Shown one piece after another: positions 13,866 to 27,947 of a stretch of 47,750 nucleotides of DNA; the stretch's first letter is position 1; every line of letters begins with the position of its first letter. The DNA is taken from sequence record PZ379542.1; one strand, given 5' to 3'. The notes under the pieces are model-generated. The model was given only the letters and a program-made list of their open reading frames with translations. It ran no database searches and was not told where the DNA came from. The translations under genes were made by a program, and so were the position numbers. The stretch is from a phage.

Positions 13866-14675
13866 ATGCTTCCAGTAGAGCGCTTAGTGGCGAACTTTGA
13901 TAAAGAGAAAATTAAACAGATTCAGAAAGATTACCAGTTTGGAGACATAACGCCTTACGAATTCCAGTGCGTGACATTTGACGCAATCGGTAAGGCTATT
14001 GGCAAGTACGAAGCGCCATTCATCGCAGACCTGTCGGTGTCTGCTGGTAAGACAATTATACTCGCCATGATTGGGAAACGAATGGAACAGCTTGGCCTTC
14101 CTTACATGGTCCTATCTCGCCAGTCAGAGATTATCAGCCAGAACGCAGAGGAACTTCGTAATTTCGGCATCCGTAATAGCGTCTATTGCGCTGGCCTTAA
14201 CGTTAAATCAGTTTACTACCCAACCATAGTGGCTAGCGAGGGTACGGCTGCCAACGGCTTATTTAAGGGGCTTGGTGACTATGTTCCGGCTGTTATCGCG
14301 ATAGATGAGTGCTTAACTGGAGACACGATGATAACCACCGATTCAGGGATGATGAGGATTGATAGCGAAGACCTTATCAATCATAAAATAAAATGCATAA
14401 ACGAAAGCACTGGTGATTACTTCTATCATAAGCCAAAAAGAGTTTTTACTAATGGTGTAAGACATGTATCATCAATTAAATTAGAAAGCGGAGAGGAAAT
14501 AAAATGCACGAGTACACACAAACTTTATTCGAACGGCTGCTGGGTAGGAGCGGGAAAACTTCGTATTGGGATGAATCTGTCGCTAGACGGCTCGCAGGAC
14601 AAATTTACGAAAAAGCTCCTGCGTGCAAGTGTGGCTGTGGTGAAAAAGTTATGCCGCATTCAAGCAAGGGGTTAG
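13866..14675 (+). CDS. SF2 helicase N-terminal part (Walker A, DE of DECH) fused to intein N-terminal splicing domain
   Basis: SVSAGKT Walker A; AIDE then CLTGDT (intein block A) and TSTH...GCWVGAGKLRIGMNL (block B); frame ends at TAG 14674-14676. Confidence 0.8.
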   Translation: MLPVERLVANFDKEKIKQIQKDYQFGDITPYEFQCVTFDAIGKAIGKYEAPFIADLSVSAGKTIILAMIGKRMEQLGLPYMVLSRQSEIISQNAEELRNFGIRNSVYCAGLNVKSVYYPTIVASEGTAANGLFKGLGDYVPAVIAIDECLTGDTMITTDSGMMRIDSEDLINHKIKCINESTGDYFYHKPKRVFTNGVRHVSSIKLESGEEIKCTSTHKLYSNGCWVGAGKLRIGMNLSLDGSQDKFTKKLLRASVAVVKKLCRIQARG

Positions 14676-15449
14676 GCGTACTTCTTAAGAACCCTTTCGA
14701 TTTCTATTTGGATTACAGAACGGGGCATCATAATTCAACCGTCAACCCATCAATGGAGGTTGATGACTTTTTACATCAAAACATTCTTGCGGCAATGGCT
14801 GGTGATGGTTGCTTGATTAAAAATACAGAAAAAGGAACGCATAGGCTATCTTGGAATATGGGAAATAAGGAGCACGCACTAAGCAAGGTTGAAAGGTTTG
14901 CAAAACTAAACCCTAGATACAGGGAGAAGAAAAACCCTGGATTTGGCGACAACTGGTTTTGCGTATCAACATCATGTACGAAAGTTCTGGATTCATATGC
15001 TGATAAGTACGGAAATTCTAAGGATGGTTACGATATTGGAAAGATATGCAGAGAGCTTAATCCAGTTGGTTGGGCTGCTTACTTTGGTGATGATGGTCAT
15101 TGCACTGTAAGCTCAGGGAAGAGGGTTGTAGAAATCCACACCGAATCATTTAGCAGGCGTGAAGTTCAATCAGTAGTTGATGCGCTAATAGCATTTATTG
15201 CTAATGACGGAGTTAAGGTTAGAAGCTATATTGGCGGCAAGAAAAAGAGAGAGCTTTACTCAGTATCAATAACAACGAGGTCGGCACAAGATGAGTTTTT
15301 TAAGAGAATTAGTAAGCACATGGAAAATGGCGTGGAATACAAAATCAAGCAAAATTAAAGACATCTCACCCATTGGCAAGGAACTTGTTTGGGATATAGA
15401 GATGCCTGAGCACCATAATTTCATTGCTGACGGGGTCGTGGCACATAAT
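14310..15449 (+). mobile_element. intein in helicase motif II (DE|CH), LAGLIDADG type; split or frame-shifted
   Basis: Starts Cys 14310; ends ...GVVAHN 15449 followed by +1 Cys; exactly 1140 nt; the endonuclease domain is in a different frame. Confidence 0.75.
14504..15358 (+). CDS. LAGLIDADG homing endonuclease (intein-associated; separate frame)
   Basis: Two motifs ILAAMAGDGC and WAAYFGDDGH about 100 aa apart; GGAGAGG RBS 7 nt before ATG 14504 (alternative ATG 14651). Confidence 0.65.
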   Translation: MHEYTQTLFERLLGRSGKTSYWDESVARRLAGQIYEKAPACKCGCGEKVMPHSSKGLGVLLKNPFDFYLDYRTGHHNSTVNPSMEVDDFLHQNILAAMAGDGCLIKNTEKGTHRLSWNMGNKEHALSKVERFAKLNPRYREKKNPGFGDNWFCVSTSCTKVLDSYADKYGNSKDGYDIGKICRELNPVGWAAYFGDDGHCTVSSGKRVVEIHTESFSRREVQSVVDALIAFIANDGVKVRSYIGGKKKRELYSVSITTRSAQDEFFKRISKHMENGVEYKIKQN

Positions 15450-17000
15450 TGCCACATGGTGGACCATATGGATATCGTAGAAGCTGAAGAGAATGAGGAA
15501 ACATTCGAGCAGATGAGCACGAAGAAGGGTGAGATGGTCTTTAAGGATGGTGTGAATACCGGGCTTCTTGGCACTGGTCGCGCGCAATACACGTTAATCA
15601 TTACCGAAATGAAGCGTCGATGCAAGGAGAAGTACGGTCGCGAACTTCGTATCTTTGGGTTAACTGGTAGCCCGTACCGTAACAACGACCACATTGTAGT
15701 TAGTAACCCAAATGTCCGTGGATTCTGGCGCAAAACTGTAATGCAAGTGCCAACCAGCTACCTTGTTGACTTGGGGTTTGTTGTTCCTACTGTCTACGGT
15801 GAAGTTGGTGATTTGGGCTACGACCTTAGTGAGTTCACTCCTGATGGAAGTGATGGGGTTAAGGACTTCAGCAAGAAAGAAATGGATGCGATGGCTGCAA
15901 AGATTCACGAAAACCAAACGATGACACAAAAGATAATGGGATTTGCTGCTAAGTTTATGGAAACAAGGAATGCTGCATTGGTAACTTGCGCTGGCAAACA
16001 GCATTGCGAGGAGGCGGCAGCCGCACTTCCAGAAGGTGTTACTTGGGCGATAGTTACCAACTCCACTGGTGAGAAGAAGCGTAGAGAGATACTTGAGAAG
16101 GCAGCCAACGGAGAATATAAGTTCATATTTCAGATTGGTTGCCTCACAACTGGCGTAAACTGCCCCCCGTGGGATACAAGCATTATCCTGAGGAAGGTTG
16201 GTAGCATTACTCTACTCATTCAGTTGCTTGGTCGTGGTATGCGTATCCTTAAGAAGAAGCACAAAGAAGCTGGAATGGTAAAAGATGACCATGTTGTTCT
16301 TGATTTTGCTGGAACGCTTGATGATATGGCTGAACTTTACTTCGACCCAATTATAGAAGAGGTACAAGACCAGAAATTTAGGTCAGCAAGAAAGCGTGGT
16401 GATGAGCCAAGAATCTGTCCGGTATGCTCTTATGGGAACTCTCCATTCGCCAGGCGCTGCAATAACGTAATTGACGGGAAGCGCTGTGAGCACTTCTTTC
16501 AGTTTAGACTGTGTGAAGATATAGCGGACCCACAGACCAAAGCTATCATCAAGAAAGGATGCGGTGAGAAGAATGATATTGCAGCTAAGAATTGCAGATG
16601 CTGTGGTGAGATGCTCATAGACCCGAATGCTAAGTTATCAGGAAAAATGTATCGTAAGGGGGACTGGTTGCGAGTTTATGACTTCAAGATTGGGTTAACA
16701 AAGAACCAGTCAGGGATTGTTGCTTCATATGAGGTAATGGCTCATAGTGGAGATAAGTTCCGAGCTTATGAAACATTCTTCCCGGAGTCAGACCATCGTG
16801 TTTGTTCTGTCAAATGGAAGGCGTTTTGCTCAACTCACATCGAGAACAGGACTGAGGCTTTTAGGATTGGCAGATTGCGTAATGCTAAAATGATTATGAC
16901 AAATGCACATCTTTTCCGTGCGCCGCTAAGGATTACGCACCGCAAGAATCAGAAGTCGCAAGATATTATCGCCAACAAATCATTTACGATGGAGGATTGA
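15291..17000 (+). CDS. intein C-terminal splicing domain fused to helicase C-terminal part
   Basis: KIKDISPIGKELVWDIEMPEHHNFIADGVVAHN|C (blocks F/G); then LTGSP and QLLGRGMR helicase motifs and Cys-rich zinc-ribbon-like C-terminus. Confidence 0.8.
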   Translation: MSFLRELVSTWKMAWNTKSSKIKDISPIGKELVWDIEMPEHHNFIADGVVAHNCHMVDHMDIVEAEENEETFEQMSTKKGEMVFKDGVNTGLLGTGRAQYTLIITEMKRRCKEKYGRELRIFGLTGSPYRNNDHIVVSNPNVRGFWRKTVMQVPTSYLVDLGFVVPTVYGEVGDLGYDLSEFTPDGSDGVKDFSKKEMDAMAAKIHENQTMTQKIMGFAAKFMETRNAALVTCAGKQHCEEAAAALPEGVTWAIVTNSTGEKKRREILEKAANGEYKFIFQIGCLTTGVNCPPWDTSIILRKVGSITLLIQLLGRGMRILKKKHKEAGMVKDDHVVLDFAGTLDDMAELYFDPIIEEVQDQKFRSARKRGDEPRICPVCSYGNSPFARRCNNVIDGKRCEHFFQFRLCEDIADPQTKAIIKKGCGEKNDIAAKNCRCCGEMLIDPNAKLSGKMYRKGDWLRVYDFKIGLTKNQSGIVASYEVMAHSGDKFRAYETFFPESDHRVCSVKWKAFCSTHIENRTEAFRIGRLRNAKMIMTNAHLFRAPLRITHRKNQKSQDIIANKSFTMED

Positions 17001-17001
17001 T

Positions 17002-17421
17002 ATGAAAATCACAGACAAAGGTGATTACCTCGAGTTCTATGGCGGACCGGTGAAGTCATGCCCAAAGGAAGACGATGAACAAATCTTCTGCTCTGATTGG
17101 GTGAAATACAACTATCCGCAGATTGTTTACTGGCACACGATTAACGAAAATAAAAAGAGCATTGGTCAAGCAAGAAAAGACCAAGCCAAGGGGCTTCTCA
17201 AAGGTGTGTCAGACTGCTTATTTCTGATACCTGAGTCATTGCGTGGCGGTTATCCATTTGGCGCCATAGAGTTAAAGAGGGCTGGTAAAACGCAAGCAAG
17301 CCCAGTTAGCAATGAGCAAAAGTCATTCCTAAAAAGCGTAAGTGAATCAGGCGGTTTCGCAGCGGTGGCTTATGGAAGAGAGGGTTTTCTTGCGGCATTC
17401 GCAGAGATGATAAGAAAATAG
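17002..17421 (+). CDS. VRR-NUC domain nuclease
   Basis: GVSDCLFLIPE...GAIELKRAGKTQASPVSNEQKSF PD-(D/E)xK-like VRR-NUC pattern; start overlaps helicase stop. Confidence 0.65.
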   Translation: MKITDKGDYLEFYGGPVKSCPKEDDEQIFCSDWVKYNYPQIVYWHTINENKKSIGQARKDQAKGLLKGVSDCLFLIPESLRGGYPFGAIELKRAGKTQASPVSNEQKSFLKSVSESGGFAAVAYGREGFLAAFAEMIRK

Positions 17422-17462
17422 CACGAATTGCTAAAGACGAATTGGTGAGTTGGTGTATTATC
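17417..17462 (+). promoter_or_regulatory. palindrome-containing promoter cassette
   Basis: aatagcacgaattgctaaa; tgtattat; ctcatcgaaacga leader; motif TAG is the VRR-NUC stop. Confidence 0.6.
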
Positions 17463-17499
17463 AACTCATCGAAACGAAACACACAAAGAGAGAAAGAAA

Positions 17500-17694
17500 A
17501 TGGCTACTATCTATACTGGTAAATTCTACGAATCACGCAAGACTGGCTACATCTACGAGATGCAAGTAACTGAAGATGGTTATGTTTTGGTTGACATTGA
17601 AGACTGCACATATGCATTCGAAGTTAGCCCAACTTACAAATATGATCTGGAAACTGTTAAAAACGAATTCGGCGAAAAATTTGATGAGGTATAA
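17500..17694 (+). CDS. hypothetical protein
   Basis: ORF with AGAGAAAGAAA RBS. Confidence 0.5.
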   Translation: MATIYTGKFYESRKTGYIYEMQVTEDGYVLVDIEDCTYAFEVSPTYKYDLETVKNEFGEKFDEV

Positions 17695-18046: not shown

Positions 18047-18285
18047 TAGTTGAAACAGGACGGGCCGCAGTCTGGGCCCACTGCGCAGAGGCTGGCATTC
18101 AGGACGACATTAAGATGATATCTAAGTACTTCGATATAAAAGATATCAGTGTCATCTTCAACGGTAAGTTTACGTACATGGATGAAAGGCCGCGCAAGTA
18201 TCTCAGGGTTAAACCTGGCGTCACGATAAACACGAATGAGTTCCTGAAAGAGAAGGGATTCAAATTTAAGATAACGAAGGGTTAA
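18043..18285 (+). CDS. hypothetical protein
   Basis: Translationally coupled ORF. Confidence 0.5.
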   Translation: MIVETGRAAVWAHCAEAGIQDDIKMISKYFDIKDISVIFNGKFTYMDERPRKYLRVKPGVTINTNEFLKEKGFKFKITKG

Positions 18286-18287
18286 TT

Positions 18288-18539
18288 ATGTTTGGATTAG
18301 ATTTCCAGCCAAAGCATTATGATTTAGTGCATGGTAGTAGCGGAGCCAGGTTTAGAGCGATACCTATTGATGACTGGTTTCCACCTGACTATGTGGATGT
18401 TAACGCGAAGACGAAGGACGGTAAATGGGTACAGATTTACTACTCTCCAGCGTGCGGTAATCTGTGCATGACAGACATGGACCAAAAATTAGCAATTAGT
18501 GCTGATTTGTTGGATTTCTGGTTAAAAGAGGTTGAATGA
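18288..18539 (+). CDS. hypothetical protein
   Basis: ORF 3 nt after previous stop. Confidence 0.5.
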   Translation: MFGLDFQPKHYDLVHGSSGARFRAIPIDDWFPPDYVDVNAKTKDGKWVQIYYSPACGNLCMTDMDQKLAISADLLDFWLKEVE

Positions 18540-27685: not shown

Positions 27686-27732
27686 GCCTTATTAAAGCAA
27701 AGCAAGAGAGGGTGGGATGGATAGGAACAAAT

Positions 27733-27947
27733 ATGAAAGAGAGATTACTGGGCTTAATGGCTAGCGGGCTGTTGTTGATGTGTATCGCACGCTATCAGCG
27801 TTCAACGTTACAGACCCAGCATGTAAGCATGCAATCAAAAAGCTGCTCTGCATGGGTTTACGAGGTCACAAGGATGTTATCACAGACCTTGATGACGCAA
27901 TAGACTCACTGAACAAGATGAAAACTTACCTGGAACAAACGAAATGA
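27733..27947 (+). CDS. hypothetical protein with apparent frameshift near 27760-27790
   Basis: ATG 27733 with AGGAA RBS opens frame 1 (MKERLLGLMASG...); protein-like frame 0 (..VYRTLSAFNVTDPACKHAIKKLL..) ends TGA 27945-27947 overlapping the next start but has no ATG of its own. Confidence 0.4.

Follow-up and report, generated by a model that had tools for sequence, protein, structure and literature searches.

A probable split intein with an overlapping LAGLIDADG homing endonuclease gene at motif II of a T1-like phage helicase

The 47,750-nt phage record PZ379542.1 (the window, within which all positions are counted) contains three overlapping open reading frames (ORFs) on the + strand between positions 13866 and 17000 (3135 nt). 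ORF1 (13866–14675; frame 0, 269 aa) encodes the N-terminal part of a helicase followed by a 121-aa intein N-fragment, and ORF3 (15291–17000; frame 0, 569 aa) encodes a 53-aa intein C-fragment followed by the remainder of the helicase. Between them lies ORF2 (14504–15358; 284 aa), a free-standing LAGLIDADG homing endonuclease gene that shares 172 nt with ORF1 and 68 nt with ORF3 and is read in frame −1, called frame 2 in a preliminary description of this DNA. The host phage is T1-like (Drexlerviridae, Braunvirinae-related). It is proposed with good confidence that the locus is a mobile fractured-gene cassette, in which a naturally split class-1 intein and a free-standing I-SceI-type LAGLIDADG gene occupy the DE/CH junction of the helicase.

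The host protein is identified by sequence as a superfamily 2 (SF2), RadD-like phage helicase, matching PHROG 16 (DNA helicase) and NCBIfam RadD. Its N-extein (13866–14309, 148 aa) contains the Walker A motif GKT, ends at the DE of motif II (DECH) and is 86% identical to residues 1–148 of the helicase of the intein-free phage P818. The C-extein (15450–17000) begins with the +1 Cys of DE-CH, continues through a Helicase_C domain (Pfam, 38 bits) to C-terminal Zn-ribbon-like Cys clusters, and is 91% identical to residues 138–664 of the P818 protein. Because the P818 helicase reads AIDE/CHMVDHM (the slash marks the insertion point), the insert is delimited exactly as 14310–15449; this comparison bears out the 1140-nt intein and the DE/CH junction of the preliminary description. 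In the DNA, the P818-type intein-free site consists of GCGATAGATGAG followed directly by TGCCACATGGTG, and the expected junction peptide of the spliced helicase is ...AVIAIDECHMVDHMDIVEAEENEETFEQMSTK.

ORF1 reads ...AVIAIDE, then CLTGDT (intein block A) and CTSTH (block B), and ends at a TAG stop. All of the AIDE-CLTGDT-TSTH features reported earlier in the SF2 helicase frame are present; the stop itself, which had been placed at 14674–14676, lies one base upstream at 14673–14675. Frame 0 contains 10 stops within 14673–15272, of which the last is the TAA at 15270–15272, and is open again thereafter. ORF3 reads MSFLRELVSTWKMAWNTKSSKIKDISPIGKELVWDIEMPEHHNFIADGVVAHN, ending ...VVAHN, before the helicase continues with CHMVDHM... 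The N- and C-fragments are located on separate ORFs, 615 nt apart and with no open frame joining them, as expected of a naturally split intein.

Both fragments have the hallmarks of a Hint domain. The N-fragment core (Hint N-lobe, 95 aa; 14310–14594) carries Cys1 at 14310–14312 and the block-B T-x-x-H at 14508–14519, and the C-fragment core KIKDISPIGKELVWDIEMPEHHNFIADGVVAHN (15351–15449) carries blocks F and G and the terminal His-Asn. Residues 149–221 of ORF1 match NCBIfam TIGR01445 (intein_Nterm; 32.9 bits, cut-off 24.5) and residues 34–54 of ORF3 match TIGR01443 (intein_Cterm; 27 bits, cut-off 15.6), which upholds the earlier intein call. Each half alone scores under the Pfam Intein_splicing cut-off (35.8), whereas the joined halves score 46.1 bits and can be aligned from one end to the other with 7cfv, the solved Spl DnaX mini-intein (residues 2–128, E = 9.5e-16). 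A word-indexed protein-database search with the N-fragment alone gave no match, probably owing to a limit of the word index, as the full ORF1 query worked. Taken with the precise insertion, blocks A, B and F/G and the profile matches identify the predicted element as a class-1 intein.

The same arrangement was found in phages ES (OR466728.1) and AN_ECEAS (PP944860.1), which are mutually identical over the 3135 nt and differ from the window by 108 substitutions and zero indels. As identity with these two phages is only ~92% elsewhere, the window derives from a different genome. The layout also occurs in five Pectobacterium phages (Ymer, Amona, Koroua, Abuela and Sabo), where GenBank already labels the middle ORF a LAGLIDADG homing endonuclease, and in several metagenomic phage contigs. 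Removal of near-duplicates left eight lineages, which are 50–69% identical in intein DNA and 39–68% identical in intein protein. In all eight, the frames are 0/−1/0, the overlaps measure 166–178 nt and 68–95 nt, the ORF2 ATG lies 191 or 194 nt from Cys1 and exactly 120 nt from a CKCGCG motif, and frame 0 contains 7–17 stops inside the endonuclease. In the database searches, which are non-exhaustive for contiguous relatives, this helicase intein never appeared in contiguous form: the ORF1 matches reaching into the intein N-fragment are all 243–316 aa, with none longer than 332 aa and none a contiguous intein-helicase.

These comparisons bear directly on a reading raised in the preliminary description, namely that a contiguous LAGLIDADG intein has suffered two compensating indels, through either sequencing error or recent pseudogenisation. 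Such an origin would be in keeping with the length of the insert (1140 nt, divisible by three), with the homopolymers close to both frame switches, and with the occurrence of this endonuclease type in contiguous inteins of PhoH, RNA ligase and DnaX. However, an identical layout is present in the separately deposited ES and AN_ECEAS genomes and in seven further lineages at up to 50% nucleotide divergence, the mid-element stops in frame 0 recur in every lineage, and all three ORFs are under purifying selection, each in its own frame. As an explanation of the current state of the locus, artefact or decay is refuted, and its probability is close to nil. Conservation of the layout in at least eight diverged lineages indicates a working mobile element and not a sequencing error.

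The residues needed for splicing are conserved throughout this set. Cys1 after AIDE is invariant in the eight lineages and in 20 database homologues, and the Thr and His of the block-B TSTH are invariant in the eight lineages and also among database homologues. At the intein C-terminus, VWDIEMPEHHNFIADGVVAHN followed by Cys, which comprises blocks F/G, the terminal His-Asn and the Cys at +1, the D, H and N of the C-fragment core are likewise invariant in the eight lineages, so that all splicing residues (C1, TxxH, HN and C+1) are retained across lineages. This pattern also weighs on an alternative in which the helicase functions as a non-covalent, two-subunit enzyme and the intein fragments act only as a dimerisation module, without splicing. 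Split-intein halves do bind tightly, and some endonuclease-fractured genes, such as nrdA of phage Aeh1 (cited via PMC2677866), have no intein at all. Such a role would not account for the invariance of the splicing-only residues Cys1, block-B Thr/His, His-Asn and +1 Cys despite 39–68% intein identity; moreover, the break falls in catalytic motif II (DE/CH), and a bulky insert at that point would probably interfere with the ATPase site. A helicase assembled without splicing is consequently considered very unlikely.

Beyond the Hint cores, each intein fragment has an additional conserved segment. The N-fragment tail (14595–14675), which comprises QDKFTKKLLRASVAVVKKLCRIQARG and the TAG stop at 14673–14675, is basic and amphipathic and is a predicted helix; its core, LLRASxAVVK, is kept in all lineages and in 20 database ORF1 homologues. 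In the AlphaFold2 (AF2) model of ORF1, residues 246–268 form a single helix of low confidence (predicted local distance difference test, pLDDT, ~60), and the hydrophobic moment of the tail is above that of most shuffles. The C-fragment head MSFLRELVSTWKMAWNTKSS (15291–15350) is dual-coded with the endonuclease C-terminus, DEFFKRISKHMENGVEYKIKQN. Conservation, the hydrophobic moment and the low-confidence AF2 helix suggest that these segments may serve as docking helices.

ORF2 matches Pfam LAGLIDADG_2 above its curated cut-off (30.3 bits; cut-off 25), as well as PHROG 11023, in agreement with the earlier assignment of the middle ORF. Its AF2 model (pLDDT 87; predicted template modelling score, pTM, 0.78) finds its best PDB fold matches in I-WcaI and I-SceI (E 1e-9; template modelling score, TM, 0.67–0.70, target-normalised), and is nearer these monomeric, non-intein enzymes than intein-embedded nucleases. 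LAGLIDADG motif 1, ILAAMAGDGC (14783–14812), includes the putative catalytic Asp101 (14804–14806), and motif 2 is WAAYFGDDGH (15071–15100); residues G100-D101-G102 of the former and G195-D196-D197-G198 of the latter are invariant in 19 homologues. ORF2 is thereby predicted to be a monomeric, two-motif, I-SceI-like LAGLIDADG homing endonuclease. Its first 35 codons (14504–14608) form a leader, which lies within the part of the N-fragment sequence that carries block B.

Protein-guided codon alignments of the eight lineages were used to resolve nucleotide diversity by codon phase. Diversity peaks at frame-0 third positions from Cys1 to intein codon ~92 (..LSLDG), at frame −1 third positions over ORF2 codons ~52–275, and once more in the frame-0 phase past the ORF2 stop. 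These switches (0 to −1 to 0) coincide exactly with the module borders, and the phase of variability therefore indicates that each module is under purifying selection in its own frame. Over the ORF2 leader (~35 codons), variability follows the frame-0 phase, with no amino-acid constraint of the leader's own; frame −1 contains zero stops in this region in 8/8 lineages, compared with 2–5 in each lineage in frame +1.

Two stretches within the overlaps are near-invariant at all three codon positions across lineages. The first, CGTGCAAGTGTGGCTGTGGT (14622–14641), encodes CKCGCG of an N-terminal Cys module in frame −1 and RASVAVV of the N-fragment tail in frame 0. The second, ACATGG..TGGAATACAAAA (15318–15344), encodes HMENGVEYK in frame −1 and TWKMAWNTK in frame 0. 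When columns with an invariant amino acid were scored for whether the codon was also invariant, this was the case in the ORF2 frame for 8/10 columns in the overlaps vs 2/37 in the unique part (Fisher p = 5.9e-6), and in frame 0 for 6/10 in the overlaps vs 2/27 (Fisher p = 0.002). Synonymous change is suppressed in the overlaps only, and both overlaps bear the mark of genuine dual coding: the N-fragment tail and the Cys module are both read, as are the C-fragment head and the endonuclease C-terminus.

Each downstream ORF has putative translation signals of its own. The Shine-Dalgarno-like sequence GGAGAGG (14490–14496) lies 7 nt before the ORF2 ATG; together with the 14504–15358 frame and its ILAAMAGDGC and WAAYFGDDGH motifs, this GGAGAGG-N7-ATG signal had been noted earlier and is confirmed. 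A G-rich purine motif occupies the same place in 8/8 lineages. The TG of the ORF2 ATG is supplied by the invariant block-B Cys codon and its A by the final base of the codon before; that codon ends in A, and the ATG is retained, in 8/8 lineages. Similarly, the reopening of frame 0 at 15273 and the GAGG-N10-ATG signal at 15291 were confirmed, with GAGG at 15277–15280, 10 nt before the ORF3 ATG. GAGG, AGGA or GGGG was read by eye from the alignment roughly 7–15 nt before this upstream ATG in 8/8 lineages.

The choice of 15291 as the ORF3 start is supported by these motifs and by the conservation of the Met residues concerned. A Met 12–15 codons upstream of the internal Met of MAWNTK (15327) is present in 8/8 lineages, whereas the MAWNTK Met is replaced by Thr in lineage L014 (TAWNTK) and by Lys in L015 (KAWNTK). 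The initiation regions of ORF2 and ORF3 are less structured than shuffled controls, and no hairpin that would sequester the endonuclease ribosome-binding site, as in the loci of Dassa et al., was seen there. A search for internal promoters or terminators separating the ORFs returned counts at shuffle expectation.

Programmed frameshifting offers another route through the same frames. A −1 shift in overlap 1, with or without a +1 shift in overlap 2, would generate a contiguous cis-splicing precursor or a fusion of the N-fragment to the endonuclease. The 0/−1/0 frames of all lineages suit a −1 shift followed by a +1 shift, the window contains G_AAA_AAG at 14609–14615 and 14642–14648 and T6 at 15296–15301, and a related clamp-loader locus (L016, described below) has its endonuclease in-frame with the intein N-fragment. 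However, a scan of all lineages for X_XXY_YYZ heptamers in overlap 1 and homopolymers in overlap 2 revealed no positionally conserved slippery heptamer, and lineages L004 and L009 have none in overlap 1. In overlap 2, only the AAAA of the dual-coded AWNTK/EYK is positionally conserved, and it is without hungry or stop codon context. The RNA fold of 14590–14700 is unremarkable (z = −0.97), the same nucleotides are constrained in both frames, which a single read-through path would not need, and ORF2 and ORF3 each have their own ATG and Shine-Dalgarno-like motif in 8/8 lineages. Two successive low-efficiency shifts would, furthermore, yield very little helicase, and frameshifting is regarded as very improbable. 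A further heptamer, GGGAAAA (G_GGA_AAA, frame 0), lies at 14550–14556 inside the Hint N-lobe in the window, L006 and L008 and is absent from the other five lineages; as a shift there would truncate the intein fold, it is probably incidental.

The distribution and divergence of the insert point to mobility. It is sporadic, being found in only 2/89 phage records that match this helicase region, and its divergence is incongruent with that of its exteins: the window and L006 share 68% identity in the intein and 46% in the exteins, and L006 and L008 share 61% and 76%, respectively. Between the window and ES, a near-identical tract extends from 14289 to 16309 with 6 mismatches in 2021 nt (0.3%), and the flanks diverge by 8.3% (13892–14288) and 16.6% (16310–16718). 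The left edge of the tract lies 21 nt from the site of insertion; the pattern fits homing with co-conversion, and the tract is a candidate for such an event. Further downstream, beside a near-identical patch at 16800–17399, the window differs from ES by large indels or replacements at 17400–17600 and 18200–18500 (about 250 and 240 alignment gaps, respectively); this is a mosaic region downstream of the helicase.

It is proposed that the cassette would operate from one transcript with three independent translation starts, at 13866, 14504 and 15291. ORF1 would yield the helicase N-part with its 121-aa N-fragment, and ORF3 the 53-aa C-fragment with the helicase C-part. The intein fragments would then associate and trans-splice, using Cys1, the block-B Thr/His, His-Asn and the +1 Cys, to generate a 664-aa helicase with an intact DECH motif. 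The ORF2 endonuclease may cut intein-free helicase alleles of co-infecting phages, whereupon the cut allele would acquire, during repair, all three ORFs of the cassette and part of the adjoining helicase sequence (homing). Trans-splicing, the activity and target of the endonuclease and the use of the three start codons are inferred from sequence. Every available computational test is consistent with the earlier suggestion that the intein is naturally split and the LAGLIDADG gene translated separately.

Several points weigh against this proposal. The ORF2 leader is unconstrained at the protein level, and the ORF2 start is read only from its ATG, the Shine-Dalgarno-like motif and the open frame; the 10-nt Shine-Dalgarno spacing of ORF3 is long. 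The near-identical tract could reflect ordinary phage mosaicism; a second identical patch lies at 16800–17399. Finally, the database searches are non-exhaustive for contiguous relatives. The sole intein-free helicase listed by the word-indexed ORF1 search is a partial protein of 332 aa, with none of the full length of ~660 aa.

The word-search relatives of ORF2 (n = 20) are all 167–294 aa long. When ORF2 residues 36–284 were run exhaustively with HMMER against 1.84 billion representatives, only 72 relatives were returned, of which the 28 best (E <= 1e-10) are 124–351 aa. A CxCGCG...GH module recurs, sometimes twice, at the N-terminus of distant free-standing LAGLIDADG_2 proteins, and the dual-coded Cys motif is for this reason considered to belong genuinely to the nuclease. 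In four such proteins (P0068, P0070, P0073 and P0074), one or two N-terminal modules of the form AP-x-C-x-C-G-C-G-x-x-V...G-H are present with a weak match to Pfam DUF6527; the window counterpart lies at 14615–14665. In this nuclease subfamily, the CxCGCG...GH motif probably serves as a small module for Zn or DNA binding.

Still more distant relatives of ORF2 are nuclease domains within contiguous inteins of PhoH (P0114), RNA ligase (P0119) and DnaX (P0086). The junction is readable in P0114 and in the split P0099; in both, the insertion comes after a Walker-B DE, which in P0114 is followed by Cys. The element of the window, conceptually translated as one joined chain, is collinear with P0114 (E 8e-14) over the nuclease and onwards through block G. 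P0099 is encoded by a Logan contig of SRR33949953 (L016:3001–5761), in which a phage-like DnaX/clamp-loader gene is present in two ORFs. Read in a single frame, the first ORF (P0099, 531 aa) joins the N-extein and intein N-fragment to two CxCGCG modules and a LAGLIDADG_2 nuclease. The second, whose overlap with the first is 8 nt, starts with a 43-aa intein C-fragment (MAKIVKKEFLGPKKVYDITVEDTHNFYAASKDGAQNTMVLAHN, followed by Cys) and continues into the C-extein. This two-ORF form is a third state beside the three-ORF and contiguous ones. A split intein of this type, with the nuclease fused to the N-fragment, seems unusual. For the element in the window, either of two origins may apply: a mini-intein may have been entered by a free-standing endonuclease gene, or a once-contiguous intein may have come apart.

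Among naturally split inteins, the cyanobacterial Ssp and Npu DnaE are also class-1 inteins with Cys1 and Cys+1, with a core of ~100 aa in the N-fragment and ~35 aa in the C-fragment; their two halves are encoded at distant loci, and no endonuclease lies between them. The core fragments of the helicase intein are of comparable size, whereas its halves lie 615 nt apart and carry the extra conserved tail and head. I-SceI and I-WcaI resemble ORF2 in having two motifs in one chain, with a sequence identity of only 16–17%; ORF2 differs from them in its additional N-terminal CxCGCG...GH module and in its association with a split intein, not a group I intron. Contiguous LAGLIDADG inteins (PI-SceI; P0114, P0119 and P0086) share the order Hint N-lobe, nuclease, Hint C-lobe. 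Unlike in these, the nuclease of the helicase element is in another frame with its own start and stop, so that no single polypeptide contains all three modules.

The closest precedent is provided by the fractured genes of Dassa et al. 2009 (PMC2677866), in which a free-standing endonuclease gene lies between split intein halves, and which are the source of the gp41-1, NrdJ-1 and IMPDH-1 split inteins. The preliminary description had correctly mentioned a precedent for such an arrangement in metagenomic phage genes; the enzymes there, however, are GIY-YIG or Vsr-like and not LAGLIDADG. As in those loci, a conserved replication or nucleotide-metabolism gene is split in a phage-like context, with the endonuclease on the same strand between the halves, and the endonuclease 3′ end overlaps the start of the intein-C-fragment ORF (by 6–69 bp in PMC2677866). 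In that study only GIY-YIG and Vsr-like (EDxHD) enzymes were found; LAGLIDADG was not observed, although according to the authors LAGLIDADG or HNH enzymes 'could' fracture genes. The helicase cassette differs in its LAGLIDADG (I-SceI-like) nuclease, in the additional overlap of ~170 nt between ORF2 and the upstream N-fragment, starting inside block B, in its host gene, an SF2 (RadD-like) helicase split at motif II, and in its occurrence in cultured coliphages and Pectobacterium phages and not only in marine metagenomes. What is new relative to fractured genes is the nuclease family, the double overlap interlocking three genes, and the culturable phages.

Out-of-frame or antisense homing endonucleases in actinobacteriophage inteins were described in a 2025 preprint by Gosselin, Arsenault and Gogarten (10.1101/2025.01.02.630785). 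There too the nuclease lies inside intein DNA in a different frame, and it was read as a free-standing gene invading an intein. The inteins in that study (10.1101/2025.01.02.630785) were not classed as split, and the out-of-frame enzyme nested in them is Endo VII-like; in the helicase element, stops close off the intein frame and the two intein halves are separate. In the literature on Drexlerviridae inteins and on phage split inteins with LAGLIDADG enzymes, no description of this helicase element was found, and the Ymer genus paper does not mention it. According to a 2024 paper, there had been no report of inteins in E. coli or coliphages.

Present GenBank annotations of the locus are wrong or uninformative. 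Those of ES and AN_ECEAS are misleading. In ES, 'minor tail protein' is given for ORF1 and 'putative single-stranded DNA binding protein' for ORF3, with an internal Met (window 14651) as the ORF2 start. In AN_ECEAS, ORF2 is omitted and ORF3 is started at 15327. A protein 99% identical to ORF2 residues 50–284 (P0001, 'hypothetical protein LUL88_004429') is encoded on a 34.8-kb contig of an E. coli third-party-annotation assembly; the contig is probably phage DNA inside a bacterial assembly. In the intein-free P818 (L003:340–870), an annotated HNH homing endonuclease gene lies just upstream of the helicase module and is another selfish nuclease in the same replication-gene neighbourhood. Elsewhere in the window, the 'apparent frameshift' noted earlier for the gene at 27733–27947 corresponds to two overlapping small ORFs with GTG starts, 27712–27903 (63 aa) and 27780–27947 (55 aa).

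It is possible, if somewhat doubtful, that the three-ORF cassette constitutes a stable, selected and previously undescribed architecture, in which the LAGLIDADG gene is interlocked by dual coding with both intein halves. If so, no part of the cassette could be lost or frameshifted without destroying the others, and the N-fragment tail and C-fragment head would be functional, for example as docking helices that replace the covalent link. Together with L016 and the contiguous inteins of PhoH, RNA ligase and DnaX, the cassette would then form a living series that illustrates how endonuclease domains enter or leave inteins. With a culturable E. coli phage as its host, it would moreover be the first natural system in which split-intein homing could be approached genetically.

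Protein-ligation tools in wide use are built on natural split inteins, whose evolutionary origin remains a matter of debate. The helicase locus supplies a case that Dassa et al. thought possible but did not observe, in which a LAGLIDADG gene fractures a host gene by way of a split intein. The presence of the cassette in cultured phages of E. coli and Pectobacterium makes it possible to test directly for trans-splicing and homing, and for the fitness cost of splitting an essential-type gene. With Cys1 and Cys+1 and eight diverged orthologues, the intein is also a candidate source of orthogonal ligation tools. The double overlap, with its frozen synonymous sites, clearly illustrates from nature how overlapping frames can lock a selfish element and a host-rescue function together.

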